DNA of 64,000 bases from Spirochaetaceae bacterium (GCA_017618015.1 JAFZVC010000025.1:166374-230373), one strand, 5' to 3'; shown: positions 3,096 through 48,494, counted from the first letter of the stretch. Made by a program: numbers and translations. Notes: a model not told the origin generated them from the sequence alone.

Positions 3096-4526
3096 ATGGT
3101 CAGAGCAGAAAAATTCAATTGGAAAGAATTGATTAAACAAATATCAGTCATCGCGATTCCCGTCGCCATGCAGAACTTGCTTTCAACGACTGGCGGCATG
3201 ATAGACACCATGATGATAGCCTCGCTTGGCGAGCTGTACGTCGGTTCCGTCGGATTGTGCGCCCAGTTTTCGTTCCTGATGTTCGCGGGCTACTGGGGTT
3301 TCGTCGGCGGCGGAATGCTTTTTTTCGCGCAGTATTGGGGCGCAAAAGACTACAAGGGAATCGAGCGGTCTTACGGCATAACGCTCACCTGCATGTTGAC
3401 CGTCTCGCTGATTTTCTCCGTCGCGGCGACATGCTTCCCAGAAGTCGTGCTTTCCATGTACACGGATAAGCTCCAAATCCGGGAAATTGGCGTTGATTAC
3501 ATACGGATTGTTGGCTTTTCGTACCCGCTTCAAGTTATGGCGATGGGCATGAGCGCGCTTCTCCGCTCGACGGAGAAAGTGAAGATTCCGCTTTACGGCG
3601 CGATTGCATCAGTTTTTACGAACACGTTCATGAACTGGGTGCTCATCTTCGGAAACTTGGGCGCACCGGCTCTTGGCGTTAAGGGAGCGGCTGTCGCGAC
3701 AGTCATTTCTGGCGGCGTGAACGTCCTCGTCGTCATGGCTTTCGCGGCAATCTCCAAATATCCGCATCTTTTCCGCGTCAAAAACTTTTTCAAATGGGAC
3801 AGGGCGTTCCTCTCAATTTATTTCAAGAAATGCTTCCCGATTATTTGCAACGAGGTGCTTATTGGCGTTGGAAACATGGTGATAAACATCGTGCTTGGAC
3901 ATCAGGTGGAGGAAGCGATTGCGGCTGTCGCGGTTTTCAGGACACTGGAAGGGCTTGTAATCGGATTTTTCGCCGGATTTTCGAGCGCGGCATCTGTCCT
4001 TGTCGGAAAAGCCGTCGGCGCGGGCGAAACGGAGCTTGCGTTCCGGCGTGCAAAACGCATCGTATATTTTTGCCAGATAACGATTTTAGCGATCGTCCTG
4101 ATTCTGCTTGCGGTAAACTATCCGCTGCTTCACGCCATGAGCCTTTCGGGGCTTTCGTACACGTACGGCAGGGGACTAATCATCATTTACGGAATCGCGT
4201 GCATTATCCGCATGGGAAACTGGACGCAGAACGATACGTACCGCTCCGCAGGAGACGCGGCTTACGGCACAATTTTGGAGATTGTGTTCATGTTCGCTAT
4301 GGTCCTGCCGTGCCTTTTGTTGGCGAACAACGTCTTTCACGCGCCGTTCCTTGTCGTGTTCGCGATGTGCTACGTTGACGAGCCTATCCGCTACGTGCTG
4401 ATGCAGGTTCACATGTATTCTGGAAAATGGATAAAGCCCGTCACCCCGGAAGGAGTGGCAGGCCTCGAAGAGTTCAAAAAACGCCGCCTGGAACAGCGCT
4501 CAGAAGTCGCTTCCGCGCAAAGCTGA
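3096..4526 (+). CDS. MATE family efflux transporter
   Basis: Polytopic membrane protein with the N-terminal signature ...IAIPVAMQNLLSTTGGMIDTMMI typical of MATE/NorM. The track start at 2964 would overlap the divergent ASCH gene, so ATG 3096 is preferred. Confidence 0.8.
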   Translation: MVRAEKFNWKELIKQISVIAIPVAMQNLLSTTGGMIDTMMIASLGELYVGSVGLCAQFSFLMFAGYWGFVGGGMLFFAQYWGAKDYKGIERSYGITLTCMLTVSLIFSVAATCFPEVVLSMYTDKLQIREIGVDYIRIVGFSYPLQVMAMGMSALLRSTEKVKIPLYGAIASVFTNTFMNWVLIFGNLGAPALGVKGAAVATVISGGVNVLVVMAFAAISKYPHLFRVKNFFKWDRAFLSIYFKKCFPIICNEVLIGVGNMVINIVLGHQVEEAIAAVAVFRTLEGLVIGFFAGFSSAASVLVGKAVGAGETELAFRRAKRIVYFCQITILAIVLILLAVNYPLLHAMSLSGLSYTYGRGLIIIYGIACIIRMGNWTQNDTYRSAGDAAYGTILEIVFMFAMVLPCLLLANNVFHAPFLVVFAMCYVDEPIRYVLMQVHMYSGKWIKPVTPEGVAGLEEFKKRRLEQRSEVASAQS

Positions 4527-8096: not shown

Positions 8097-9647
8097 TTAA
8101 TACTGTGGCGTGTTCTGCCTGTTCCTGAAATCAGTGCAGTTTGCAAGGTTCCGCTCGAACGTTGCCTTGTAGTTGTCAAGAATCTGGAAATCCTTGTTGA
8201 ACTGGCTGCCCGGAATCGCCTCGTCGATGCGAAGCAAATCGGCATACATGTTTTCTATCAGTTTAATGCATGTGTTCAGCTGATAGATTATCTCGTCCAT
8301 AATTGTGTCCGAGGTGTCAACGTTGCCAAGGACAGGAAGAACAGGCTCTCCGTTCGTGTAAACTGTCGCATTCGTACCGTTGTTACGGATTGCATCGTTA
8401 TACTGGCGCTGAAGTTCGGCGATGTTGTCTGATCTTCGTGCGATATCGATTAGCAGGCGTGCATAGCGGATGTATGCCTCGGACTGCATTATCCTTTCTC
8501 CGGTGATTGTTGCGGACTGATCCGCGCTCTTTTGGACAAGATAAACCGGGATTGCGGAACCTGATTTTTCGGCATTTTCCATAGTCTTGTAGCTGTACGA
8601 GAACCATGCTATTGGCTTTGATTTGTCGAAGTCGCCTGAAAGAAGAAGCTCCGTTACTATCGTCTCGTAATCACCGTTGTGGATCGTATCAAGCTCGTAA
8701 GAAACGCTTTGTCCGTCGATGACGTTTTTATAACCCCAAGTTTCAAGGAGCGTCACGCTGTCGGCAAGCTTCAAGTTCATTTTCATGTCACGCGCGGCAG
8801 GAACGAGAAGCCTGTCAAGTTCGGTACTGAATGTTTCTACCATTTTCTCGTGGTTCGATATAAAGCGTGAGCTTCCACCGCCTTCTTCCGCAATGTCTGT
8901 CATAAGGTTTACGTCGGCAGATGTTCCGAGCGCGATGCAGGACACGTTTATATCAAGCTTGTTGTACTGCTTTGCAAGGTTTACGATATCTTCCGTCGTT
9001 TTTCTGTTGTCGTTGTGCTCTCCATCGGTAAGCAGAATTACGCGGTTGTTGTAGGTTGGGTCGTAGTTCGCGATAACTTCCTGGTAGCCTGTTGCAAGTC
9101 CTGCGTAAATGTTTGTTCCTCCGTTTGCTCTCATTGACTGGACTTTGTTCTTGAACTGCTGTTTTTCAACGTATGTTTTCATCTGCGTCGCGGGGAAGTA
9201 AACTGCCGCATCGTTGCTGAATGCGATGAGTGACACGTAATCCGTGGAACGGACGTTTTCGATGAAGATTTCGAACGAATCTTTTACCCAGTCCATTTTG
9301 TTAGCGGATGACATTGAGCCGCTGCAGTCGATTACGAACGCAAGGTTGAACTTGGGCAAGTCTTTGAAAGCTGTTTTCTGGGCTTTCATGCCAAGCTGAA
9401 GATAAGCAAGCTCGCCTTTTTGCTCCGCATCAAGGATGAAATTGACTGATGCGTTTTCTGGAAGGGGATAGTCGTAATCGACCTGCGAAAGATACGCGTC
9501 GATTTCTATTTCGTTTGCGGGGGTTATGTAACCCTGGTTTGAAAGATACATCGCCCTGTCGGAAGAGGTGGTGCTTTCTTTTTTTCCGCCGGCAAAAACA
9601 AGGCTGGCAGAGATTGCGATAAGCATTATTAAAAGAAATCTTTTCAT
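8097..9647 (-). CDS. secreted von Willebrand factor A (VWA) domain protein
   Basis: MIDAS motif FVIDCSGSM. Signal peptide MKRFLLIMLIAISASLVFA. The second ATG (9647) has GGAG 6 nt upstream. Confidence 0.75.
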   Translation of the reverse strand: MKRFLLIMLIAISASLVFAGGKKESTTSSDRAMYLSNQGYITPANEIEIDAYLSQVDYDYPLPENASVNFILDAEQKGELAYLQLGMKAQKTAFKDLPKFNLAFVIDCSGSMSSANKMDWVKDSFEIFIENVRSTDYVSLIAFSNDAAVYFPATQMKTYVEKQQFKNKVQSMRANGGTNIYAGLATGYQEVIANYDPTYNNRVILLTDGEHNDNRKTTEDIVNLAKQYNKLDINVSCIALGTSADVNLMTDIAEEGGGSSRFISNHEKMVETFSTELDRLLVPAARDMKMNLKLADSVTLLETWGYKNVIDGQSVSYELDTIHNGDYETIVTELLLSGDFDKSKPIAWFSYSYKTMENAEKSGSAIPVYLVQKSADQSATITGERIMQSEAYIRYARLLIDIARRSDNIAELQRQYNDAIRNNGTNATVYTNGEPVLPVLGNVDTSDTIMDEIIYQLNTCIKLIENMYADLLRIDEAIPGSQFNKDFQILDNYKATFERNLANCTDFRNRQNTPQY

Positions 9648-24079: not shown

Positions 24080-25543
24080 ATGACACCACACGTTTATCCA
24101 AAAGGTTGTTTTTTCAAGAGCCTCGATGACATAAAAGACAAGAAAGTTACGATTATGGGGCTTGGCTTGAACGGCGGCGGCGAGGCGTGTGTCCGTTTCT
24201 TTTCCAAATACGGCGCATATATCACTGTCACCGACAAAAAAACAGAAGAAGAGCTTGCTCCCACACTCAATTCGCTCAGGCAAGATTCAGCCGTCGATTT
24301 CAGCCGAATCAAGCTTGTTTTAGGCAAACACGAGCTTTCCGACTTTCAGAACGCGGACTGCGTAATCAAAAACCCCGGCGTTAAGTTCGAGGGGAACGAA
24401 TATCTCGCCGCCGCCAAAGCCATAGAAAGCGACATCTCTCTTTTCCTAAGCTTTACAAAGGCCCCGATAATCGCGGTGTCCGGCAGCAAAGGCAAGTCGT
24501 CTACCGTGAGCGCGATTCACTATGGGCTTTGTCAGGCGGGGTTCAAGGCTTTTCTTGGCGGCAACATAACAGTAAGTCCGCTTACGTTTTTAGAACAAAC
24601 TGATGAAACAACGCCTGTCGTTCTGGAGCTTTCCAGCTGGCAGCTCGCCGATTTGCGGGGCAGGGGAGTCCTTAAGCCGAAGATTTCCGTGCTTACGAAA
24701 ATCGTGCCGGACCACCAGAACTGGTACGGCGGCATGGAACCGTACGTGGCAGACAAAAAGCTTATTTACGCTGACCAGACCCCGGACTGCTTTACGCTTT
24801 GCAATGCGGATGACGGTTGGGGAAAAGTTTTCGCGGCGGAGACAAAGGCGAAAGTTGTGTGGTACGGGGAGAACGCTGATATGCCTGTGTGCGTTACTGA
24901 CGCGATTGTTCCCGGCGTTCACATGAAGCAGAACCTTACGAATGCGGCAATCGTGATGACGCTTATGGGCGTTGAGCCGGAAGCCGCCAAAAAGATCCTT
25001 GCGTCATACCCCGGAATTGAACACCGCCTCGAATACTTCTATTCGTGGAATTTTTCAGGTTCAGACGACCACGCAGCTTCCCCACACACGGAATTCCGTT
25101 TTTATAACGACACTACGGCAACCGTGCCCGATGCGGCGGCTGCGGCTCTTGAAGCATTTAACGAAAAGCCAGTTCTTTTTGCGGGCGGAAACGACAAAAA
25201 TCTTGATTTTACGCCTTTTGCCGCTGCGGCGCATAAAGCCGCTGCCATTTATCTTCTTGAAGGAAAGGGCACGGACCACATGATTCCGCTTCTTAACGAG
25301 CGCGGCATCAGTTTTTCAGGACCGTTCAGCTCTCTTAAAGCTCTTCTTACGGCTTTCAAAAACGATGTTTACGCCGGAAAAATCTCTGCGGGCAACTCTA
25401 CAAATGGCGATGCGGCTAAAAATCAGACTGTAAACGTTGTCTTTTCGCCTGGCGCGACATCTTTCGGTATGTTCGCGAACGAGTTCGACAGAGGCAGGCA
25501 GTTCAAGAATCTTGTTAAAGAACTTTTCGCGGGGAACTTATGA
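24080..25543 (+). CDS. murD: UDP-N-acetylmuramoylalanine--D-glutamate ligase
   Basis: N-terminal Rossmann motif VTIMGLGLNGGG and Mur ligase P-loop AVSGSKGKSST. It follows ddl. Confidence 0.85.
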   Translation: MTPHVYPKGCFFKSLDDIKDKKVTIMGLGLNGGGEACVRFFSKYGAYITVTDKKTEEELAPTLNSLRQDSAVDFSRIKLVLGKHELSDFQNADCVIKNPGVKFEGNEYLAAAKAIESDISLFLSFTKAPIIAVSGSKGKSSTVSAIHYGLCQAGFKAFLGGNITVSPLTFLEQTDETTPVVLELSSWQLADLRGRGVLKPKISVLTKIVPDHQNWYGGMEPYVADKKLIYADQTPDCFTLCNADDGWGKVFAAETKAKVVWYGENADMPVCVTDAIVPGVHMKQNLTNAAIVMTLMGVEPEAAKKILASYPGIEHRLEYFYSWNFSGSDDHAASPHTEFRFYNDTTATVPDAAAAALEAFNEKPVLFAGGNDKNLDFTPFAAAAHKAAAIYLLEGKGTDHMIPLLNERGISFSGPFSSLKALLTAFKNDVYAGKISAGNSTNGDAAKNQTVNVVFSPGATSFGMFANEFDRGRQFKNLVKELFAGNL

Positions 25544-26433
25544 AACATCTAATTTCTGCAATGCTTTTTCTATCAATGGTTTTTACAGTTCTTCCAGCAG
25601 AAGAGCCAACTATCGCGCAAACTGATGAAAATTCTTCATCCGCGCCGTCCGCCGGCTTCGATTTGAACCGTCTTACTTTCAACGGAAGCGGCGAGTTTTT
25701 TAAGCTCGATCTGCTCACTGATTCAGTTATTGTTGGCACTGGCGTTACGTTTTTAGGCACAGAAATCCTTATCAATAAATTTGCGCACCTTAAAAACAAA
25801 GTGTGGGATGGCTCGTCTTTCGACAAAAACGATGTGCCGTCTTTTGACCGGGCTTTTATGCAGCCGTTTTCAAGCGGACTCAACACAGCGGGCGACATTT
25901 TTCAGTTCGTGGCTTTGTTAAGCCCTGCCGCTCTTATTGCAGCCCCCATGGAGGAATGGCTCACTATTGGCGTTATGTATGCAGAAACTGTCCTTGCCAC
26001 ATACAGCTTGAAAGAGTTCACGAAAGCCCTTGTAAACAGGACGCGCCCGTACATGTACTATGACGAAAAACCGCTCGATTTAATAGCGAAAGGCGACTGG
26101 AACGAGTCTTTCCCGTCAGGACATTCTGCACTGGCGTTTTCCGGGGCAACTTTTGCTTCGTATGTGTTCTCAAAGTATTTCAGCGATTCGCCTTGGAAAT
26201 ACGTAGTTACAGCTGCATCTTACTCTGTTGCTGCGGCAACGGCTATTTTCCGCGTCGCTGGCGGCAAGCATTTTTTGACCGATGTTCTGGCTGGTGCGGC
26301 GATTGGAACGGCTGTGGGATTTGTAGTGCCATGGCTTCATACGCTTAAAGCTGGAAATACAGGAAATGCGGGTAACAGAGGCGTTGAACCGCAAGTTTAT
26401 TTGGGCGGAATCGGACTTAAAATCAGTTTTTAA
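25540..26433 (+). CDS. PAP2-superfamily phosphatase (possible lipid/undecaprenyl-PP phosphatase)
   Basis: Tripartite acid-phosphatase motif: KALVNRTRP, PSGHS, and R…GKHFLTD in place of the usual SRxxxxxHxxxD. It has an ATGA overlap with the murD stop. Confidence 0.8.
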   Translation: MKHLISAMLFLSMVFTVLPAEEPTIAQTDENSSSAPSAGFDLNRLTFNGSGEFFKLDLLTDSVIVGTGVTFLGTEILINKFAHLKNKVWDGSSFDKNDVPSFDRAFMQPFSSGLNTAGDIFQFVALLSPAALIAAPMEEWLTIGVMYAETVLATYSLKEFTKALVNRTRPYMYYDEKPLDLIAKGDWNESFPSGHSALAFSGATFASYVFSKYFSDSPWKYVVTAASYSVAAATAIFRVAGGKHFLTDVLAGAAIGTAVGFVVPWLHTLKAGNTGNAGNRGVEPQVYLGGIGLKISF

Positions 26434-39948: not shown

Positions 39949-40215
39949 TTAGCCGATTACAGCAAGAATATCAGCAGCCTTAAGGATAAGGTGCTCTTCT
40001 CCGTCAATCTTAACGGCTGTACCAGCATATTTGTCGTACATAACGCGGTCGCCGGCTTTTACCTTGATTTTCTCTTTATCGTCTCCGACAGCGACAACAG
40101 TCGCAATCTGTGTTTTTTCCTGTGCTGTGTCCGGAATGATGATTCCGCTTGCAGTCTTTGACTCTGCTTTCTCGATCTTAACGAGAACTCTGTCCGCCAA
40201 TGGTGTAACCTTCAT
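39949..40215 (-). CDS. groES: co-chaperonin GroES
   Basis: [13 protein letters not shown]...[11 protein letters not shown]...G.V.AVG...D.V.Y.KY.GT..K.DGEE.LIL. No groEL is adjacent. Confidence 0.95.
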
Positions 40216-40249
40216 ATATTTCCTCCAAAAGGTTGAATTAAATTGGAAT

Positions 40250-40298
40250 TGTTCATTGTGAACACATTAAAGTTACGAAAAAAAAGCTCCATCGTCAA
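40250..40298 (-). promoter_or_regulatory. putative groES promoter with palindrome TGTTCA-N3-TGAACA at the predicted start site
   Basis: The minus strand reads TTGACG (40298-40293)-17 nt-TAACTT (40275-40270). The palindrome at 40250-40264 lies just downstream. No CIRCE (TTAGCACTC-N9-GAGTGCTAA) is present. Confidence 0.3.
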
Positions 40299-40507
40299 TA
40301 AAAATCGTCGTTGATGCTAACTCCTAACAGGAATTTGGCGGTTCCCGCCCGCACGATGTCGCGGGCGGTCGCTATGTTCCGGGTTCGCTTCCGCTCATTC
40401 CCACGCGGATAAACCGCATGGGAACAGCTTCGCTGCCCTTCACAGCGCTAACCGAGTTCATTTCGAAAAATTGTTTAAAAAAATTTTAGACTATACGTCG
40501 CTTCGCG

Positions 40508-40575
40508 CCGTTAGCGAGAGGAAATTTATTAAAATTCTGCGCTCACGCGCAGGACGCTATCATTCGGTGATAGTC
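40508..40575 (+). repeat. left copy of imperfect direct repeat bracketing the island
   Basis: CCGTTAGCGAGAGGAAATTTATTAAAATTCTGCGCTCACGCGCAGGACGCTATC... aligns without gaps to 46561-46628 with roughly 80 percent identity over the first ~55 nt (hand alignment). Confidence 0.7.
40557..40573. promoter_or_regulatory. candidate operator palindrome CTATCA-N5-TGATAG upstream of FliG-like/AAA+ genes
   Basis: Perfect 6-bp arms (CTATCAttcggTGATAG) 42 nt upstream of ATG 40615. The same half-sites and spacing occur at 42992-43008. Confidence 0.5.
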
Positions 40576-40614
40576 TGGTGCTTTACATTAATAGTGACAT
40601 TGAAGGAGTTGTGT

Positions 40615-41322
40615 ATGAGAAAAGAAAACACTGTTGAGACAAAGAAAGCGCAGGAATTGGTTTCAAAAACAATGGCTACTATCACCGAAGAAACCAAGAA
40701 TATCCTTATTGATTATATCCAGAACGGATATATTGAAAGCCTTTCAAAGGCAATTGCGTATCTCGGAATGAGCCCGGATGAAGCAAATATTCTTCTTGGA
40801 GATATGAGCGAAACTGTGAAAGAACGAATAACAAGCAATATCGCGCACTTTCAAAAACACGACGAAAGTGTCGTTTCTGAAGTTGAACATATTGTTCTGA
40901 CTCGTGGCAAAAAGCATGTTGCAGAAGAATACAAGGTAATCAAAGAGAACCTGCCATTTGCTGGAAAAGAGTTTGCTGAAAAATCCATACAGAATTTCCG
41001 AGCTAAAACACCCATTTTCCAGAAAACACTGGATGAATGTATTTTCACTTTTGAAGACATTAATCAGCTTGATGACCGTGAAATCCAAAAGATACTTTAT
41101 TGGACAGGACATAAGACACTGACTCTGGCTCTAAAAGGAGCTTCCAAAGAGCTTCGGAAAAGAATTTTCCGCAACAAACCCAAAAAAGAGGTGGCTATGC
41201 TCAAAGAAGCCATAGAGTTTTTGGGATCAGTTCGTGATTCGTGGATAGAAGAAGCTCAGGCAAAAATCGTAAAAAACGCTCTGCGTCTTGAAGCTGACGG
41301 TGAAATTGTTATTTGGAGATAA
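40615..41322 (+). CDS. FliG-like protein (middle + C-terminal domains only)
   Basis: The C-terminal half FEDINQLDDREIQKILYWTGHKTLTLALKGASKELRKRIFRN...EEAQAKIVKNALRLEADGEIVI follows the FliG_C signature (LDDR.IQ, LALKGAS.EL, EEAQ.KI, GEIVI). GAAGGAG RBS lies 6 nt before ATG 40615. At 235 aa it is about 100 aa shorter than canonical FliG. Confidence 0.65.
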   Translation: MRKENTVETKKAQELVSKTMATITEETKNILIDYIQNGYIESLSKAIAYLGMSPDEANILLGDMSETVKERITSNIAHFQKHDESVVSEVEHIVLTRGKKHVAEEYKVIKENLPFAGKEFAEKSIQNFRAKTPIFQKTLDECIFTFEDINQLDDREIQKILYWTGHKTLTLALKGASKELRKRIFRNKPKKEVAMLKEAIEFLGSVRDSWIEEAQAKIVKNALRLEADGEIVIWR

Positions 41323-41323
41323 T

Positions 41324-42982
41324 ATGGAAATCGGGATGAAAGAACCTAGAAAAATCAGATGGAATGTGCTGGCTGCAATTGATTATGTTTGCAAACAGAC
41401 AAAGTACAAAAAGCTAAAATACGAGAAAACTCCCCAAATGCAAAAAACACTGGAACGGCTTTGCTCTTATTTTGGCGGAATCAATGAGAATCAGGTTATT
41501 ATCCTCAGCGCAGTTCTTGACCTCCAGCTTTCGCATGACAAAATGACTAATATCAGCGATTTTTTCAATATGACCGCGCTCAGTTATCTTCAGCATAATA
41601 ATGAAATTGAGGATTTGGACGAGCGCGGTTTGTTGGATGTCGGGATAAACGAAGAAGGACATTCATACGATATCCCACAAATCGTAGTTACTGCAATTTT
41701 ACGTAACAGTGAAATAATCATTGAAAAGAAGGAGTTTGATCCAGTTGATTTCGTGAAAGAAGTGACTATGATCTTGGATAATAACTTGTACAATCAATTT
41801 AAAAAAAATAAAGAAAAAGTATATAAACTTGAAACGAAGAATTCAAAACAACCTTTTATAAAACATGTAAAAGCCCTTGTTCCGATACCATCCGATAGAA
41901 GTTGCTTTTATGCGATTTGCAGTGATTTTGTAGATGGTTTTGATACAAATTTGCAGCATGGTTTTCGTAGGGTATATGATAACAATGCAACTTCTAAAAT
42001 AAGAGCGATGCTCTCGGAGAGCCATGTGCTCTTAAAACATGGTCTTGTCGATTTTATCATAAAAGGCAATGTTATTGATTCAACTTTGACCCTGACGGAC
42101 AAAGCTAAAAAAATCTTTCTGGGTGAAAATGAATACCTCTATGAGCGGAAACTGAATGAGAAATCGCTTATCCTGCCGTCATCTATCGTTTCAAAGCATT
42201 TGTTCTACAGCCCGGAAAATCAAAAGCAGATTGATACGCTTTATTCCACTATAGAAAGTAAGAACCTTCTTTCTATACAAAACAGTCTGCGTTCTAAGGG
42301 GTTGTCGACAGGAATATGTATTCTTCTTTATGGAGCACCTGGTACTGGCAAGACAGAATCCGTGTATCAGATTGCAAAGGCAACGAACAGGCAAATCATT
42401 CATGTCGATATAAGTACGACAAAATCGTGTTGGTTTGGAGAAAGCGAAAAACTTATAGAACGTATATTTGTAGACTACAAGCGGTCATGTAAAAAACTTC
42501 TGGCGCACGGAAAAAGTGATATTCCTATTCTTCTTTTCAACGAGGCAGATGCAATCCTGCAAAAGCGCATGGAGTTTCATGGTGGTGGTGTTGAGAAAAC
42601 AGAGAATGCAATGCAGAACATCCTGCTTGAGAACATGGAAAAGTTTGAAGGCATTCTTATAGCGACGACAAACCTTGCCATAAATCTTGATGCAGCGTTT
42701 GAACGGCGGTTTCTGTTTAAAATAAAGTTCGACAATCCATCTGTGGAGGCAAAAACCGCGATTTGGAGATCGAAGCTTGAATGGCTGCCCGAAAATCAGG
42801 CTCAATTATTGGCGAACGAGTATAATTTTTCCGGTGGGGAGATTGATAATGTCGTCAGAAAGGCAACTATGGAAGAAATCCTTACGGGTTCAAGAGTTAC
42901 AATTAATCGGCTTGAAGAAATCTGCAATACGGAAAAACTGAATAATTCCGATTCCGGCAATAAAGTCGGGTTTCATGTATAA
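41324..42982 (+). CDS. classical-clade AAA+ ATPase with uncharacterised ~320-aa N-terminal region
   Basis: Walker A LYGAPGTGKTE, Walker B ILLFNEADA, sensor-1 IATTN, and SRH/Arg-finger region LDAAFERRF. The ATG lies 1 nt after the FliG-like stop. Confidence 0.8.
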   Translation: MEIGMKEPRKIRWNVLAAIDYVCKQTKYKKLKYEKTPQMQKTLERLCSYFGGINENQVIILSAVLDLQLSHDKMTNISDFFNMTALSYLQHNNEIEDLDERGLLDVGINEEGHSYDIPQIVVTAILRNSEIIIEKKEFDPVDFVKEVTMILDNNLYNQFKKNKEKVYKLETKNSKQPFIKHVKALVPIPSDRSCFYAICSDFVDGFDTNLQHGFRRVYDNNATSKIRAMLSESHVLLKHGLVDFIIKGNVIDSTLTLTDKAKKIFLGENEYLYERKLNEKSLILPSSIVSKHLFYSPENQKQIDTLYSTIESKNLLSIQNSLRSKGLSTGICILLYGAPGTGKTESVYQIAKATNRQIIHVDISTTKSCWFGESEKLIERIFVDYKRSCKKLLAHGKSDIPILLFNEADAILQKRMEFHGGGVEKTENAMQNILLENMEKFEGILIATTNLAINLDAAFERRFLFKIKFDNPSVEAKTAIWRSKLEWLPENQAQLLANEYNFSGGEIDNVVRKATMEEILTGSRVTINRLEEICNTEKLNNSDSGNKVGFHV

Positions 42983-42988
42983 AAAAAT

Positions 42989-43011
42989 AGCCTATCATTC
43001 CTTGATAGGCT
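42989..43011. promoter_or_regulatory. candidate operator / hairpin AGCCTATCA-N5-TGATAGGCT upstream of WYL regulator gene
   Basis: Perfect 9-bp arms. The element lies between the AAA+ stop (42982) and a TATAAT box (43017-43022) that precedes the WYL gene. No T-tract follows, so it is not a typical terminator. Confidence 0.5.
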
Positions 43012-43044
43012 GGGTGTATAATATTGATAATATGAGGAGGCTTT

Positions 43045-44046
43045 ATGGCGAAAGAAAGAGTGAAAAAACAGTTTTTGAACGGATATGAGCGTATCTTGAA
43101 AATCGATTATATGATTTCGAACTGGAATTATCCGAGCGTTGAGGATTTTGTAAACGAAACTGGAGCTTCCATTCCGACTATAAACCGCGACCTGCGGGAT
43201 TTGCGCCTGAAATTTGGTGCCGATGAGATATTGCAGTATGACAGGAACAAAAAGGGTTTTTATTACACGCTCCCGTCGTTCCGCATCCCGGCACTGCTCA
43301 CTTCCGAAAAGCAGATAATTGCCGCTCAGCTTATGTCAAATCTTTTGAATCTGATAAAAGACACTCCGGTTTACAAACAGGCAGTAGAGGTGTTTACTTC
43401 GCTTTCTAACGAGATTGATGAGGACACCAAGCTCAACGCTAAAAAGCTTTCTAACCGCATACTGTTTTTGGGAATGGAACCAGTTAAGATTGATGATGAG
43501 ATATGGACAAAGCTGGAGGAAGCCCTCGCGAATAATTATTATGTGAGCTTTAATTATAAAGGTCACAAGGAGAAGTTCAAAGTTCAACCATGGCAGCTTG
43601 TATACAGTCAAGGGATGTGGAGCTTGTATGCGTATAATCAGAATCCTGAAATAAAGAAAACACGCTTCTATAATCTTCCCGGAATGTACAATCTTGAGAT
43701 TGATAAGCAGAACACCTTTGAGTTGCCTGATGATTTTGAGTATACAAAACGCGCAAAAGGAAATTTCCGTCGGTACATTGGCAAAGAAACCTTGCAGTAC
43801 AAGATAAAGATTACTTCCGATAAAACGTTGGACTTCATAAAAACATACAACTGGGCTGAAGATCAGAAGTTCGAAAAACAGGATGATGGCAGTACGATAA
43901 TGACTTTCACGAGCAATCAGGACTGGCCGATTTTCGGCTGGGTTATGAGCCACGGAATGTACGCTCAACCGCTGGAACCTGAGTGGCTAGTGAACGAGTG
44001 GAAGAAAAACGTGAAAGAAATGGCGAAATTGGCGGAGAGGGTGTAG
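43045..44046 (+). CDS. WYL-domain transcriptional regulator (BrxR/CapW-like architecture)
   Basis: N-terminal wHTH (VEDFVNETGASIPTINRDLRDLRLKFG), YDRNKKGFYY, and WYL barrel (VSFNYKGHKEKFKVQPWQLVYSQGMWSLYAYN). GAGGAGG RBS. Confidence 0.8.
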   Translation: MAKERVKKQFLNGYERILKIDYMISNWNYPSVEDFVNETGASIPTINRDLRDLRLKFGADEILQYDRNKKGFYYTLPSFRIPALLTSEKQIIAAQLMSNLLNLIKDTPVYKQAVEVFTSLSNEIDEDTKLNAKKLSNRILFLGMEPVKIDDEIWTKLEEALANNYYVSFNYKGHKEKFKVQPWQLVYSQGMWSLYAYNQNPEIKKTRFYNLPGMYNLEIDKQNTFELPDDFEYTKRAKGNFRRYIGKETLQYKIKITSDKTLDFIKTYNWAEDQKFEKQDDGSTIMTFTSNQDWPIFGWVMSHGMYAQPLEPEWLVNEWKKNVKEMAKLAERV

Positions 44047-44075
44047 AAAAGCTAGGTTGATAAGGAGATTACGTT

Positions 44076-44756
44076 ATGCAATATACCAAAATTGAAAAGA
44101 TAATTAGAGATTCATTGTTAGATGTGAGAGACTTGTATACGAATAAACCAATAACATCGCATGTGATTTTTCCAAAATATTCTGACAACACAGAAAGATA
44201 TTCAGAGCAGGAACTAAAAAGCATCTTTTTGAGCAAGATTGAACAATCTGCATTTTATTATTCTGTCGAAACTCCATCCAGGAACAAATATCGGTTTGTT
44301 GAAAATGACGAGCCAAAAGTTTCATTCTGTGGAGAAGAATCAAAAGAGGTGTTTCAATCTTCTATGATAGATACGACTTTATATGATTCAAATAAAACTT
44401 TATTGAGCCATATAGAATTCAAATATGGACAAAGTTCCGTTTTTTCAATTCAAAAGGATTTTTTAAAGCTGATATGTGAATCACAAAATGTCAAGTACAA
44501 TTATTTTGCTCATTATCTTGGCAATTCAGACAATGGAACAAAAAAAGCGATTTTCAGTAAATATCGACAAGCATTGAATAATATTATGACTATCAATACA
44601 AACATTGATGATTTTGAGAGGAAGATTTCAAAGATCATCATTTTCGTGATGTTTGCAAGGTTGAATGAGATATATAGATTCTCTTTGAAAGATTTTGCTG
44701 AGAATCTCAACCTTGATGCTTATTTGGAAACAATCAGTCAGCCAACAGAACGGTAA
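44076..44756 (+). CDS. hypothetical protein with PD-(D/E)xK-like motif spacing
   Basis: AAGGAG RBS. D99-x14-E114-F-K116 (SSMIDTTLY...LSHIEFKYG) is preceded by an acidic helix (SEQELKS). Nuclease fold is inferred only. Confidence 0.45.
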   Translation: MQYTKIEKIIRDSLLDVRDLYTNKPITSHVIFPKYSDNTERYSEQELKSIFLSKIEQSAFYYSVETPSRNKYRFVENDEPKVSFCGEESKEVFQSSMIDTTLYDSNKTLLSHIEFKYGQSSVFSIQKDFLKLICESQNVKYNYFAHYLGNSDNGTKKAIFSKYRQALNNIMTINTNIDDFERKISKIIIFVMFARLNEIYRFSLKDFAENLNLDAYLETISQPTER

Positions 44757-44801
44757 AGAAGGAAAGCTAATCTGGCGAGTTTGATGAAGAGGGTGTAGAA
44801 T

Positions 44802-45419
44802 ATGAATAAGGAGATGAAAATGGAAGCGGCAAAGAATCAAGAATTAGATAAAAATCTTAATGATGAGGTTTTTGGTTACAATGGTAAAAAATATACTCTT
44901 TATGAATTACGATGTAGTGCAAATAATTATTTAACATCAGATCCTAAAGAATGCAGGCAAAAACTTAAGGAAAAATATGCAAAAGTTTATAATTGCATAG
45001 AACAAGAAGTTCCTCCTTCTATTCTGAAAGAAGTTTATAGTCTTGATTCAAATTTCAAAGAAATATGTGAACCAGTTTCTGGTTATACGAAGAATGATTA
45101 TTATGCCAGTAACTTAGGGAGAATTCGTCATTTTGGTAAGATTATGCTTCAGGATGATACGAATCTTAATGGATATCTTTATTTAAAAGATTATGCTGAA
45201 GGTAGCAACAAGCTATATAAATTTAAGTCAACAACTCCTGTATATACATTTATAGCCTGTGCTTTTTTTAAAGATTTCAATAACGGTACCGAGTTAAAGC
45301 ATATACATCATATTAATAATAATGGTTATGACTCTCGACCTGATAATTTAATTCCACTAACTCAGAAAGAACATTCAATTGCACATGGTCGAGTTATAAA
45401 AAATAGTAAGGAGGCGTAA
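44802..45419 (+). CDS. NUMOD4-HNH endonuclease
   Basis: YYASNLGRIRHFGK...NGYLY is NUMOD4-like. HIHHINNNGYDSRPDNLIPLTQKEHSIAH is the HNH_3 motif. The start could be ATG 44820, which has AAGGAG 6 nt upstream. Confidence 0.75.
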   Translation: MNKEMKMEAAKNQELDKNLNDEVFGYNGKKYTLYELRCSANNYLTSDPKECRQKLKEKYAKVYNCIEQEVPPSILKEVYSLDSNFKEICEPVSGYTKNDYYASNLGRIRHFGKIMLQDDTNLNGYLYLKDYAEGSNKLYKFKSTTPVYTFIACAFFKDFNNGTELKHIHHINNNGYDSRPDNLIPLTQKEHSIAHGRVIKNSKEA

Positions 45420-45420
45420 A

Positions 45421-46431
45421 ATGTTCGAATCAATTGGAAACAAAGATTTAAGACAGGTTTATAATGAACTTTGGGAAAATGAAGCAAATCGCCCTGCAGA
45501 GGTAATACCAACAAATCACTCGGAAGATTCTTTTCAATTTAAGATTAACAAAAAAAATGATATGTGTAATGAAATTGAAAGAATATTTGATCTTAATATA
45601 AAAGATTTTTCGAAAAAGTTTAAAGATGCCTGTTATTCACAGGGACAAGAATATAAGGAGATTTCTAAATTACATTCATCTGCTCTTTGTTCTTTACTTA
45701 TTTTTTCTGGGGTTTCCAACAATAATGAACTACGATTGACTCTCAATGGACAAGAATGTATTTTTTCTTCTGTTTTATTTGAGTATAAGAATAAGGTAAT
45801 AGGTTTTCCTTCGAATGTTGATGTTGTTTTAGTAGGGAAAAATAAGGATAAAACAAAGACAATAATTCTATTTCTAGAATCAAAATTTTCTGAATACCTA
45901 AGAGTTTCAAATATATTTGATGAACTTGGAAAAAGGTATATTACGAATGAGTATTCAAAAGAAATCTACACAGATGATTTTTTAAGAAATATAGGTATTC
46001 AATTGTGTAAAGATGAGAATTCCAAATTAAAAATCTTTTCAAAAAAAAGAAAAGGAAAAATGCGTGATTTCTATGGTTTCAAACCAATAGACGAAAACGA
46101 TGAAACTTATCTTGAGGGAATTAAACAAATGATTTCTCACTATATTGGTGTTGAACATTTTATTGAAGAAGATTTGGAAGATGATCGAAAAATAACTTAT
46201 TGTGCTAAAGACACAGAAGTCTATCTTGGAGAGATTCTTTTTGATTTCAAATTTAAGGACGCCAAAGAAAAGTTACGTAAATATTCTTCATATTACAAAA
46301 AACTAGCGAATAGGTTGAAAAAATTAAATCCAAACATTCATGTATTGGATGATATCTTAAAATATTCTTTATTTAAAGATTTAGATTTTGAAATAGCTGA
46401 TAAGGTAAAAAAATTTTACGGATTAGATTAA
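45421..46431 (+). CDS. hypothetical protein with PD-(D/E)xK-like motif spacing
   Basis: AGGAGG RBS, and the ATG lies 1 nt after the HNH stop. D134-x18-E153-S-K155 (PSNVDVVLVGK...ILFLESKFSE). Nuclease fold is inferred only. Confidence 0.45.
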   Translation: MFESIGNKDLRQVYNELWENEANRPAEVIPTNHSEDSFQFKINKKNDMCNEIERIFDLNIKDFSKKFKDACYSQGQEYKEISKLHSSALCSLLIFSGVSNNNELRLTLNGQECIFSSVLFEYKNKVIGFPSNVDVVLVGKNKDKTKTIILFLESKFSEYLRVSNIFDELGKRYITNEYSKEIYTDDFLRNIGIQLCKDENSKLKIFSKKRKGKMRDFYGFKPIDENDETYLEGIKQMISHYIGVEHFIEEDLEDDRKITYCAKDTEVYLGEILFDFKFKDAKEKLRKYSSYYKKLANRLKKLNPNIHVLDDILKYSLFKDLDFEIADKVKKFYGLD

Positions 46432-46465
46432 CAATAGAAATAAACATTTCTATCCCTGGTATTCG

Positions 46466-46504
46466 TCTCCGTTTATACTAGAAGTATGAGCGGAGATTTT
46501 TTTT
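46466..46504 (+). terminator. intrinsic terminator closing the WYL-nuclease operon
   Basis: 13-bp stem TCTCCGTTTATAC / GTATGAGCGGAGA (one G-U pair), 5-nt loop, then T8. Confidence 0.8.
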
Positions 46505-46560
46505 ACATAAAGCTCCGTAGCCTAATCACAAAGAAAACCGTTCTATGCATCACTTATGCT

Positions 46561-46628
46561 CCGCTAACGAGAGGAAATTTACTTAAATTCTGCACTCAGG
46601 CGCAGGACACTATCTCTCTATGATAATC
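46561..46628 (+). repeat. right copy of imperfect direct repeat bracketing the island
   Basis: CCGCTAACGAGAGGAAATTTACTTAAATTCTGCACTCAGGCGCAGGACACTATC... is the partner of 40508-40575. Confidence 0.7.
46610..46626. promoter_or_regulatory. degenerate third copy of the palindrome (CTATCT-N5-TGATAA)
   Basis: It occupies the same position within the right direct repeat as the left-copy palindrome. Both arms carry one change. Confidence 0.3.
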
Positions 46629-46656
46629 CTCCTGTTTATACTGTATAAACAGGAGG
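46628..46656 (+). promoter_or_regulatory. perfect 14-bp-arm palindrome that contains the RBS of ORF 46661
   Basis: CCTCCTGTTTATAC-T-GTATAAACAGGAGG. The right arm ends in AGGAGG 4 nt before ATG 46661. It is either an SD-sequestering hairpin or a dimer operator. Confidence 0.5.
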
Positions 46657-46660
46657 ATGT

Positions 46661-47029
46661 ATGGCAAATAGATTAGATATGGGTGAATACGCACTAGTAG
46701 AAAGATTCTACGTAGTTGAACCAATTGAAAGGCTTCGTAAAGTCGAACGAATCCAGAGTTTGTCTTTGGTAGAACGTTCTCATTTAATGCGGTTAGTGCA
46801 ATATTTGGAGCGAGATCGTGCCGAAATAATGGCAAAAAATCCGAATCCAAAGCATCTACCGTTTCCAAATGAAAAAAGCGTACAGCCACAAGAAGAAAAT
46901 CCAGCGTATATCCTTGATATCGGTAATCATAATAATGATGACATTTCTGGCGTAATTGTGGATATTGGTAATCATAATAATTATGACAAATCTGGTGTAA
47001 TCGTGGATATTGCCTGTCTAAGAAAATAA
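46661..47029 (+). CDS. hypothetical protein with internal 15-aa tandem repeat
   Basis: AGGAGG RBS 4 nt before the ATG. The C-terminus repeats DIGNHNN(D/Y)D(I/K)SGVIV. No family recognised, and coding status is uncertain. Confidence 0.35.
   Translation: MANRLDMGEYALVERFYVVEPIERLRKVERIQSLSLVERSHLMRLVQYLERDRAEIMAKNPNPKHLPFPNEKSVQPQEENPAYILDIGNHNNDDISGVIVDIGNHNNYDKSGVIVDIACLRK
46916..47011 (+). repeat. 45-bp tandem repeat, 2.1 copies, inside ORF 46661
   Basis: GATATCGGTAATCATAATAATGATGACATTTCTGGCGTAATTGTG versus GATATTGGTAATCATAATAATTATGACAAATCTGGTGTAATCGTG (39/45 identical by hand count), then GATATT. Confidence 0.8.
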
Positions 47030-47106
47030 CTCACTTTTTTAAGTTTCATACAAACGTGTTTAAGACAGCGGAGTTTACCGCTGGGCTAGGGCGTGGAGCA
47101 GTTGCG

Positions 47107-47190
47107 GACGTACATTAAGCGTCCATGCTTAATGTACTTAGCGGGTTTTGTAACAAAACCCGACAGTTTTTGCGCACATCCATGTGCGCA
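47107..47190 (-). repeat. three-hairpin GC-rich module, copy 2 (inverted)
   Basis: The reverse complement reads TGCGCACATggATGTGCGCA, CGGGTTTTG-tta-CAAAACCCG and GTACATTAAGC-atggac-GCTTAATGTAC. Order, linkers and H3 loop match copy 1. An extra outer stem GCGGACGTA/TACGTCCGC sits at 47104-47112 and 47202-47210. Confidence 0.7.
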
Positions 47191-47214
47191 GTTGAATGTC
47201 CTACGTCCGCAAGT

Positions 47215-47330
47215 CGGAACGACCGCGCGTTAGCGTATTTCGCAACAAGCACGGAGTGCGCCGTTTCCAGCTAGCTGCGGAAGGCCCGGCACGCCGTAGG
47301 CGGGCAGCCCCCATAATCATAATTAAATAA
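47215..47330 (-). repeat. modular GC-rich intergenic repeat, copy adjoining the three-hairpin module
   Basis: The reverse complement contains GCTAGCTGGAAACGGCGCACTCCGTGC. On the plus strand the block ends in GCAGCCCCCATAATCATAATT, reminiscent of CCCCCGCCTATCATATT in copy B. Confidence 0.45.
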
Positions 47331-47600
47331 AGAATCTGGTGGGGTGACGCGAAATGAACCATCGGGACAATAAAAGTGTCAAAATGAACCAGTAAAGGGG
47401 GTAAAAAGAAAGGGTGTGTCAAATTTACACAATAGAAGATAATAACAAAGAGTCAAAAAGTAAAGAAAAATCGATAAAAATCTGAGGATAAAAAATTAAG
47501 GTCGTATTTATACGATTTATCTGTCTGCTTTATAAGAAGATGGAAAGGGGTGCAGGTGCAAGGAAATTTTTGGAAATATTTTTTTAAGGATTTGTGATTT

Positions 47601-47616
47601 TGGCACGGTAATTGCA
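47601..47616 (+). promoter_or_regulatory. sigma-54 (RpoN) -24/-12 promoter for the RpoS-like sigma gene
   Basis: TGGCACGgtaaTTGCA matches the TGGCACG-N4-TTGCW consensus at every conserved position. It lies 39 nt upstream of ATG 47655, and GGAGG RBS sits at 47644-47648. Confidence 0.65.
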
Positions 47617-47654
47617 AGTATAGTTGTGTAACGGAAACGTAACGGAGGCAAAAA

Positions 47655-48494
47655 ATGGCTAATGATGATGTAATTCTTGCAATGTACCTTAAAGAGATCA
47701 ACAGAATCCCTCTCCTTTCACGTGATGAGGAAACCGATCTTGCAGCCCGCGCGAAAGCTGGTGACAAGATTGCAAAAGACAAGATTGTACGTGCGAATCT
47801 CCGCTTCGTTGTCAATGTAGCAAAAAAATATCAGAACCGTGGGCTTGATCTTACCGACCTTATCAGCGAGGGAAATATCGGGCTTCTTACTGCCATCGAC
47901 CGTTACGATGTGTCAAAAGGATACCATTTCATTTCTTATGCCGTATGGTGGATCCGCCAGGCAATTCTTAAGGCTATCTACGAGAAGTCAAGGATGATCA
48001 GGCTTCCGCTTAACCGCGCGAACGAGCTTGTTCAGATTGAGAAAGCTCGCAAATCTGTCGGTGGAAGCAAGACAGAAGAGCAGGAAATCCGCGAGATTGC
48101 AGAGATGCTCAACATGGACAAGACTCATGTCCGCGACCTTCTTAATATCGCAAGGGATATGATTTCGCTTGATAGCGCAGTGAATCCTGGCGATTCAGAC
48201 AGTTCATCGCTCGGAGAGTTCATTTCTGACTCACTTTACGATGATCCTGAAGAGCACGTTATGCAGACGAGCATGAGGGAAGATATAGACGCAGTTCTCG
48301 ACAGCCTTACGGAAAAAGAGGCTGAGGTTCTGCGCTGCCGCTTCGGACTCAACGGAAAAGAGTCGATGTCGCTTAAGGAAGTTGGCGATGTGTTCCATCT
48401 TACGAAAGAGAGAATCCGCCAGATCGAGAAGAAGGCTATCCGGCGCCTGCAGCATCCTACACGCATGAACAAGCTGGAAGCTTACGTAGCGTAA
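47655..48494 (+). CDS. sigma-70 family sigma factor, group-2 (RpoS-like), regions 1.2-4
   Basis: Region 2 DLISEGNIGLLTAIDRYDVSKGYHFISYAVWWIRQAI and region 4.2 SLKEVGDVFHLTKERIRQIEKKAIRRLQHP are RpoD/RpoS-type rather than FliA-type. It is only 279 aa. Confidence 0.85.
   Translation: MANDDVILAMYLKEINRIPLLSRDEETDLAARAKAGDKIAKDKIVRANLRFVVNVAKKYQNRGLDLTDLISEGNIGLLTAIDRYDVSKGYHFISYAVWWIRQAILKAIYEKSRMIRLPLNRANELVQIEKARKSVGGSKTEEQEIREIAEMLNMDKTHVRDLLNIARDMISLDSAVNPGDSDSSSLGEFISDSLYDDPEEHVMQTSMREDIDAVLDSLTEKEAEVLRCRFGLNGKESMSLKEVGDVFHLTKERIRQIEKKAIRRLQHPTRMNKLEAYVA

Follow-up and report, generated by a model that had tools for sequence, protein, structure and literature searches.

In Caulobacter crescentus, DriD recognises ATACGAC-N7-GTCGTAT. 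Its site takes up the −35 position in promoters without a −35 hexamer, and DriD activates these promoters (PMC13004042, PMC9186387). At its targets didA, bapE and CCNA_03891 the distance from the site to the −10 box is constant, and a didA oligo with an optimised −35 has the hexamer in place of site positions 7–12 (PMC13004042, PMC9186387). From the position of this hexamer it follows that the DriD dyad lies about 19 nt ahead of the −10 box. In the promoter of driD itself the site is placed differently, and repression has been suggested there (PMC13004042, PMC9186387). The WYL proteins BrxR (E. fergusonii pEFER, Acinetobacter) and CapW are repressors of BREX and CBASS. BrxR recognises 10–11-bp inverted repeats with a 5-bp spacer and CapW recognises 19–24-bp palindromes; these sites overlap or follow the −10 box, where the bound protein acts by steric block, and for BrxR a second box is known within the same island (PMC9122601, PMC9122588, PMC11662680). 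In mycobacteria, the ‘sigma adaptation’ promoters of the WYL-family factor PafBC have a canonical −10 box, no −35 hexamer, and an element at −23 to −28 (−26) (PMC8635444). No WYL regulator of a spirochaete is described in the literature that we searched.

The window analysed here, a stretch of 64,000 nucleotides from a Spirochaetaceae bacterium, contains a low-GC island with a gene for a wHTH-WYL-WCX regulator. A palindrome with the core CTATCA-N5-TGATAG lies in the promoter of this gene, and again in the promoter of a neighbouring gene pair for a FliG-like and an AAA+ protein. Our comparisons show that the palindrome is a real, conserved and phased promoter element. It is most probably the binding site of the WYL regulator of the island, and as such it ties the FliG-like/AAA+ pair and the WYL-nuclease operon together. 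The main interest lies in the activator-like architecture of these promoters and in the content of the putative regulon.

The island, its WYL regulator and the palindrome sites

The island (Table 1) has a GC content of 0.26–0.41, versus about 0.45–0.50 around it. From left to right, the gene order is groES (minus strand), FliG_C-like, IetA-like AAA+, WYL-WCX, a 226-aa gene, NUMOD4/HNH, a 336-aa gene, ORF122 and a sigma-70-family gene. In 8 of the 11 genomes of the same genus the groES and sigma genes are adjacent, and the site is thus empty. The closest genome with this empty arrangement, G090, aligns to 40151–40308 and 47373–47713, with junctions near 40308/47373. Hence, all three palindrome sites and both copies of the repeat discussed below lie inside the insert. 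The genome that is closest by sigma identity (G116, locus L066; 95%) carries a gene for a HipA-like kinase at the same place, which marks the groES–sigma interval as an insertion hotspot. No tRNA genes were found in the window.

Table 1. Positions, in the window, of the island and of the features within it
Feature	Position	Strand	Description	Basis
Low-GC island	40309-47372		~7.06 kb, between groES and sigma-factor gene	empty-site junction alignment
65-nt unit, copy 1	40492-40552	+	hairpin A 40495-40511, linker TTAGCGAGAGGAAATTTATTAAAATT, hairpin B CTGCGC-TCAC-GCGCAG 40537-40552	
Site 1	40554-40576		ACGCTATCA-TTCGG-TGATAGTCT; promoter of FliG-like/AAA+ pair	
Predicted −10 of FliG-like/AAA+ unit	40584-40589	+	TACATT, 10 nt past core	
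Target unit 1	40615-42982	+	FliG_C-like (40615-41322) overlapping IetA-like AAA+ (41288-42982)	
Site 2	42989-43011		AGCCTATCAttcctTGATAGGCT; perfect 9+5+9 palindrome AGCCTATCA-TTCCT-TGATAGGCT; own promoter of WYL gene	
Predicted −10 of WYL operon	43017-43022	+	TATAAT, 8 nt past 17-nt core	
WYL regulator gene	43045-44046	+	333-aa wHTH-WYL-WCX regulator	Pfam WYL and WCX; profile; fold match
WYL-operon downstream genes	44076-46431	+	unknown 226-aa, NUMOD4/HNH nuclease, unknown 336-aa	
65-nt unit, copy 2	46544-46605	+	fused to site 3	
Site 3	46607-46629		ACACTATCT-CTCTA-TGATAATCC; degenerate copy 5' of ORF122	
Predicted −10 of ORF122	46637-46642		TATACT, 3' of site 3	

The regulator matches the Pfam domains WYL (1.7e-7) and WCX (2.7e-6). 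A single-sequence phmmer search of the protein against the PDB gave no match, and a profile was needed. The profile, built from eleven homologs, matched PafBC (7e-13), DriD (8e-6), CapW (1e-5; HTH, residues 27–88) and BrxR. The AlphaFold (AF2) model (mean pLDDT 73) predicts an HTH (residues 32–74) that carries a β-wing, together with a helical linker and the WYL and WCX domains. The top 30 Foldseek matches were all WYL regulators, with TM-scores near 0.4 and DriD as the best match (1e-13). No other DNA-binding domain was found among the island proteins, and the WYL protein is the only HTH protein that is conserved at the ortholog loci. Reading the specificity off the recognition helix was tried and proved uninformative. 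The helix, SIPTINRD, is almost identical in the WYL clade L018–L024, whose promoters are without the motif, and specificity is therefore not readable from it.

The sequence at site 2 is as the earlier note had described it, a palindrome between the stop codon of the AAA+ gene and the TATAAT box of the WYL gene. It starts 6 nt past the TAA stop (42980–42982) and ends 5 nt ahead of the TATAAT box and 34 nt ahead of the WYL ATG. Its exact CTATCA-N5-TGATAG core occupies 42992–43008, and its dyad centre, at 43000, lies at about −29 relative to the predicted transcription start. The same half-sites with the same 5-nt spacer recur at site 1, again as the note had stated, in the core CTATCAttcggTGATAG (40557–40573). 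This core ends 42 nt 5' of the FliG-like ATG at 40615, and its dyad centre (40565) lies at about −31. The degenerate copy at site 3, with the core CTATCTctctaTGATAA (46610–46626), lies 34 nt 5' of the ORF122 ATG at 46661; it has two half-site mismatches to CTATCA-N5-TGATAG and is a weak site at best. The exact motif occurs twice in the window and was found in none of 100 shuffles. When up to two mismatches are allowed, the window has four matches versus a shuffle mean of 1.4, and site 3 alone is thus not significant.

Directly 3' of site 3, at 46626–46658, lies another long and perfect palindrome, CCTCCTGTTTATAC-TGT-ATAAACAGGAGG, within which falls the ribosome-binding site of ORF122, AGGAGG. 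In the predicted fold of the ORF122 leader this palindrome is dominant (−35 kcal/mol, z = −3.7), and the predicted structure suggests a further, translational layer in the control of ORF122.

The earlier note proposed a search of the whole genome for the motif, and this search bore out its specificity for the island. The 3.28-Mb assembly contains only two copies of CTATCA-N5-TGATAG, both in the island, where 0.28 would be expected from base composition. Among all spacers of 0–15 nt between CTATCA and TGATAG, no length other than 5 was enriched in the genome. A symmetrised matrix, trained only on 19 foreign sites, was also run over the own genome of the island. Its best matches were site 2 (29.6 bits), site 1 (23.4 bits) and site 3 (16.5 bits), so that the degenerate copy ranks third in the genome. 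Ranks four and five were taken by the promoter of a WYL paralog on contig C93 (16.2 bits) and by a divergent promoter on contig C37 (15.4 bits), where the match adjoins a probable WYL N-terminal remnant. In total, five matches reached at least 15 bits, versus about 0.5 in shuffles.

These two other contigs deserve brief mention. The divergent intergenic region on C37 (about 25200–26120) has two tandem CTATCA-N5-TGATAA sites. One of them faces a gene for an unknown 238-aa product and has a TATAAT box 9 nt past the site; the other faces the short ORF, resembling the N-terminal HTH of a WYL regulator, that is probably the remnant. The paralog on C93 (L102, 38001–52000) has 29% identity to the island regulator, and its promoter carries the 65-nt repeat unit described below, together with a TTATCG-N5-TGATAG site. 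It lies directly 5' of a genuine flagellar operon (flgC, fliF, full-length fliG, fliI) and 3' of a VWA-like DUF2201 gene and a FlhB_C-like gene. A FliG-like match on this contig was considered as a second copy of the island and rejected, since it is the genuine flagellar fliG.

The half-sites are also those of tetO, in which the hexamers CTATCA and TGATAG are separated by a 1-nt spacer instead of the 5 nt found here. No genomic site has the two hexamers at a spacing of 1 nt, and no TetR-family gene or domain was found among the island proteins. The likeness is coincidental, as the earlier note had thought probable.

Conservation of the palindrome and the protein that may read it

WYL homologs are present in 118 of the 201 genomes of the family, with up to 10 per genome. 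The closest of them in this set (76–77% identity) belong to another genus, which fits horizontal transfer. A collection scan yielded a set of 12 WYL orthologs with 63–79% identity, from T. ruminis, T. bryantii, Treponema sp. JC4 and rumen/gut MAGs. In 11 of these 12, AG(A/C)CTATC-N6-TGATAGTCT is kept exactly 8 nt ahead of the −10 box, which reads TATAAT in ten and TATTAT in L082. The 11 promoters share the order CTATC-N7-GATAG, then TCTGGGTG ((T/G)CTGGGTG), then the −10 box. There is free variation in the spacer, and the genes upstream are not the same; at two loci the stop codon of the upstream gene falls inside the right arm of the palindrome.

The FliG-like gene shows a comparable pattern. 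An ortholog of it (40–48% identity) lies within 5 kb of the WYL gene at 11 ortholog loci, and nine of these 11 have the same palindrome about 40 nt 5' of the ATG, 10–11 nt ahead of TATATT. The palindrome is kept whether the gene is co-directional with the AAA+ and WYL genes or convergent and several genes off. At L086 and L088 the FliG-like/AAA+ pairs are orthologous to that of the island and have the same order. The joint consensus is tAG(A/C)CTATC-N6-TGATAGTCT, with arms of 8–9 bp and a free 5-bp centre, and the symmetric consensus from 23 sites is AGACTATC-N7-GATAGTCT. Covariation in an outer-arm hairpin (AGCC..GGCT versus AGAC..GTCT) was apparent with 4 orthologs, was gone with 12, and was rejected.

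Since sites occupy the promoters of the WYL operon and of the FliG-like/AAA+ pair, and weakly that of ORF122, the island would form one regulon. A shared WYL site that ties both modules together had been suggested in the earlier note, and the sequence comparison supports this suggestion. If the FliG-like/AAA+ pair and the WYL-nuclease operon indeed act as one unit, this matters for the role of the FliG-like protein.

Only one ortholog locus, L084 (ruminal_MAG_422; 3800–4000, 8900–8990), is without the palindrome in its WYL promoter, where an unrelated GC-rich stretch has replaced it. The FliG-like site of this locus is also degenerate (ATATCATTAAATGAGAG), as if the WYL and FliG-like sites decay together.

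In the ortholog alignment the core of the palindrome is conserved in sequence, with no compensatory changes, and position 6 is often T·T. The outer arms are not consistently symmetric, and their symmetry is broken in L083, L085 and L086. This combination argues for read-out by a protein and not for a structure. We consider it highly improbable that the palindromes act as nucleic-acid hairpins, with site 2 as a transcript end or attenuator and sites 1 and 3 as structured leaders or repeats. Such hairpins would explain why the RNA of site 2 has a stable predicted fold (−16.4 kcal/mol, z = −3.8) and why, on the sense strand, several of the asymmetries could still pair as G·U. Furthermore, site 2 has a T-run after the stem on the minus strand, and sites 1 and 3 adjoin a unit with co-varying hairpins. 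However, the coding strand has GGGTGTATAAT instead of a U-run after site 2, the A-run is not conserved in the orthologs, and no minus-strand gene ends there. Sites are also found in divergent regions, and always at a fixed distance from a −10 box, so that they would lie upstream of the transcript start. The transcript-end hairpin, which had been kept as an alternative for site 2, is therefore not supported.

Which protein reads the palindrome? Judging from its symmetry, location and conservation, it is in all likelihood the DNA site of the wHTH-WYL-WCX regulator of the island, bound as a dimer. In one genome after another the CTATC...GATAGTCT flavour of the motif accompanies the clade-A WYL orthologs, also where these entered the genus of the island by horizontal transfer, and relatives without the island are also without the motif. 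Counts of the looser TATCA-N5-TGATA core are only suggestive, because the background is 3–8 per genome, and a 14-base extended motif was therefore used for the co-occurrence. All 4 sampled genomes that have a clade-A WYL carry this motif, as do 6 of the remaining 197; its reversed control gave 5 hits. Of the eight outside matches, three stand at the head of operons with other WYL paralogs and a fourth at the head of a homologous operon, while two resemble chance matches. Since the genomes are related and thus not independent, the co-occurrence is support rather than a test.

An alternative, which we rate as improbable, is that another protein reads the palindrome (a WYL paralog such as the one on C93, an unrecognised factor, or a regulator independent of the island), while the island regulator has its targets elsewhere. 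Besides the island regulator, the genome encodes two or more WYL paralogs, of which the one on C93 carries a related site in its promoter. In T. bryantii the paralogs number up to 10, and many other genes are preceded by a second flavour of the motif, ATATCA-TTTAR-TGATAT; a paralog could bind some of the sites, especially those of this flavour. The recognition helix, moreover, is not diagnostic. Yet it is clade-A WYL that the CTATC...GATAGTCT flavour tracks across genomes, and the WYL protein stands alone as a DNA-binding candidate within the island.

Promoter architecture and the sign of regulation

When all loci are taken together, a −10-like hexamer lies 8–11 nt past the 17-nt core in 40 of the 44 gene-facing site orientations. 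Each of the 13 WYL-ortholog promoters has a gap of exactly 8 nt, and nearly all others have one of 10–11 nt. Measured from the dyad to the predicted −10 box, this amounts to 17 nt at the WYL promoters versus 19–20 nt at the target promoters. Start codons lie 34–53 nt downstream of the sites, whereas in the opposite direction the distances show a diffuse distribution. The 8-nt versus 10–11-nt split could point to different regulation of the regulator and its targets, and it bears on the question how the phase of a site sets the sign of WYL regulation.

Relative to the predicted transcription starts, the site extends from about −40 to −18, over the −35 position. No conserved −35 hexamer was found in the ortholog promoters: TATAAT or TATATT is kept among them, while the −35 window (ATCATT, ATCGAA, ATCTCA) varies freely. 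The adjoining groES promoter, by contrast, reads TTGACG-17-TAACTT. With no −35 hexamer, the palindrome promoters look intrinsically weak. An alternative promoter in which the right arm serves as −35 (TTGATA-18-GATAAT) is not conserved in the orthologs and was rejected.

Thus, the core ends upstream of the predicted −10 box in those 40 orientations, rather than at or 3' of it as in BrxR and CapW. Based on the predicted boxes, the arrangement is that of DriD and PafBC, with a −10 box without −35 hexamer and a site over the −35 position at a constant distance. A site over −35 at a fixed phase, in promoters without a −35 hexamer, favours a mechanism like that of DriD. We tentatively prefer such a model, although we rate it as somewhat short of probable: the WYL dimer would sit on the palindrome, control the island as one regulon and activate its targets. 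A ligand would activate the dimer, and as in DriD, PafBC and CapW this ligand would probably be ssDNA. The dimer would then take the place of a −35 element, with its dyad 19–20 nt ahead of the −10 box, and recruit RNA polymerase to the target promoters. In its own promoter the site is 2–3 bp closer to the −10 box (17 nt), and the regulator may autoregulate differently there.

The likeness to DriD extends over both the protein and the site. Like the island regulator, DriD is a wHTH-WYL-WCX protein of the homodimer type and of about 330 aa, and no protein matched the fold better. In both cases the site is a pseudo-palindrome whose conserved half-sites are separated by N7; both sites lie over −35 in promoters with a −10 but no −35 box, at a fixed distance, with the dyad about 19 nt ahead of −10. 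In addition, a separate and differently placed site in the regulator's own promoter has been proposed for DriD as well. There are also differences. The half-site ATACGAC of DriD is unrelated to AGACTATC of the island, and the identity between the proteins is only 15–18%. DriD controls chromosomal DNA-damage genes, whereas the island regulator adjoins FliG-like, AAA+ and nuclease genes on a mobile island. Activation is shown for DriD, whereas for the island regulator we infer it.

PafBC offers a second point of comparison. It is a WYL-family factor and the best profile match, and the right half-site GATAG of the island promoters lies at −23 to −28, as does the PafBC element. However, PafBC works as a heterodimer, and its non-palindromic element is read by a single HTH. 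The element found here is symmetric and has two half-sites, which would place both HTH domains on the DNA.

With the same binder and the same regulon, the WYL dimer might instead be a repressor of the BrxR/CapW type that covers the −35 and spacer region at rest. Binding of ssDNA by the WYL domain would then make the dimer leave the DNA, and the nucleases and the FliG-like/AAA+ pair would be derepressed. We regard this as quite possible but rather doubtful. BrxR and CapW belong to the same protein family, have inverted repeats in the promoters of their own loci and head defence-type gene sets. The studied WYL repressors of defence systems bind inverted repeats of 19–27 bp in their own promoter regions, and the BrxR repeats have a 5-bp spacer, like the 9+5+9 form here. 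Tight repression also makes sense for a WYL gene at the head of a predicted-nuclease operon in a horizontally acquired island. A site that spans −40 to −18 would block the polymerase, and the WYL promoter, with its perfect TATAAT box and an A/T-rich upstream tract, might work unaided.

Nevertheless, the sites of BrxR and CapW lie at or 3' of −10 and not over −35, while the island site is upstream of −10, phased, and part of −35-less promoters. A repressor would not need the strict phasing of 8 or 10–11 nt that is seen at some 40 promoters, and these promoters look intrinsically weak. Finally, the profile and fold matches to BrxR and CapW are weaker than those to the activators DriD and PafBC. 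The BrxR/CapW analogy drawn in the earlier note is thus not the best fit for a site over the −35 of −35-less promoters with DriD-like phasing.

Several points weigh against the activator model that we prefer. Regulators with a site in their own promoter are most often negatively autoregulated. The studied WYL regulators beside defence-type nucleases, BrxR and CapW, are repressors, which by analogy would speak for repression here. Moreover, the 2–3 bp difference in spacing between the WYL and target promoters does not fit a single rigid activation geometry. All in all, the sequences establish the motif, its uniqueness, conservation and phasing, and the family of the protein; the identity of the binding protein, its ligand and the sign of regulation are what we infer, and for the sign the analogy with DriD slightly favours activation. 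The architecture suggests that WYL regulators on defence islands need not all be repressors like CapW and BrxR. If true, a DriD-like activation on a mobile island would widen the view of how islands are controlled.

The 65-nt repeat unit and related islands

Sites 1 and 3 form the 3' ends of a direct repeat of ~87 nt (about 40489–40575 and 46541–46628), with 82% identity over the best 71 nt. Because the two sites share this duplicated module, their likeness is largely inherited. In copy 1, the 65-nt unit is joined to site 1 via GACG. We searched the repeat unit across genomes by nhmmer, and found that the first ~65 nt of the module are a repeat that occurs throughout the Treponemataceae, with hairpin A, the conserved linker ..TTWGC.AGAGGAAATTTATT.. 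and a GC-rich hairpin B. Further copies are found, for instance, at L058 (1791–2070) and L059 (1894–2257). The hairpins co-vary: hairpin B is 94% paired, with double changes at 5 of its 6 pairs, and the covariation score was 0.405 versus 0.133 in shuffles, a value reached by 0 of 500 shuffles. A search of Rfam with the repeat and the palindromes gave no RNA family at E up to 1.

In G199 the unit forms tandem arrays of 64–66 nt. The 66-nt spacing of the matches resembled a CRISPR array, a reading that was rejected, as the whole 64–66-nt unit repeats without unique spacers. The 87-nt repeats were also considered as attL/attR or as a target-site duplication. This was rejected too, since no copy is present at the empty site of G090 and the two copies are internal to the island.

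Most copies of the unit are without the palindrome, and site 2 and most ortholog palindromes are without the unit. As they occur apart, the unit and the palindrome are separable parts that are sometimes fused. Fused copies precede the FliG-like gene, ORF122, the C93 WYL paralog and an AAA+ gene of T. bryantii, as well as the WYL genes of T. ruminis and Tb.RUG.220. The unit may represent a REP-like element or an insulator, or it may belong to a portable promoter cassette. In view of these fusions, one might argue that the likeness of the sites reflects the spread of a repeat, with the palindrome simply forming the end of an 87-nt element that is mobile or was duplicated, and having no regulatory function itself. 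We find this hardly credible. Apart from the separate occurrence of the two parts, the palindrome of copy 2 is more diverged than the rest of its module, and yet the palindrome is the most conserved stretch across the orthologs.

The results provide a precise cis-element with a consensus, a phasing and three ranked sites in this genome, and with dozens of sites in cultured relatives, T. bryantii and T. ruminis among them. They also invite a wider, speculative scenario for rumen and gut Treponema, which we think rather unlikely. Phased TATC-N7-GATA elements would form ‘hybrid’ promoters without a −35 hexamer that are activated by WYL regulators. A cue from DNA damage or phage might then co-induce nucleases, cytoplasmic domains of flagellar proteins in soluble form (FliG_C, to which T. 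bryantii adds FlhA_C and FlhB_C) and unfoldase-type ATPases. This would couple defence to interference with the flagellar motor or export gate, and the system might spread on islands by means of a cassette of repeat, operator and promoter.

An island of more than 18 kb is present in T. bryantii NK4A124 (L055, G150:C6:66000–84000) and XBD1002 (L056). Nearly every transcription unit of the T. bryantii island is headed by either ATATCA-TTTAR-TGATAT or CTATCA-N5-TGATAG. The island encodes three FliG_C-like proteins, a soluble FlhA C-terminal domain and an FlhB C-terminal domain, and also a MoxR AAA+ protein with a VWA/metallopeptidase, a DnaB_C-like ATPase, a PLD-like protein and a DUF6946-NUMOD4-HNH nuclease.
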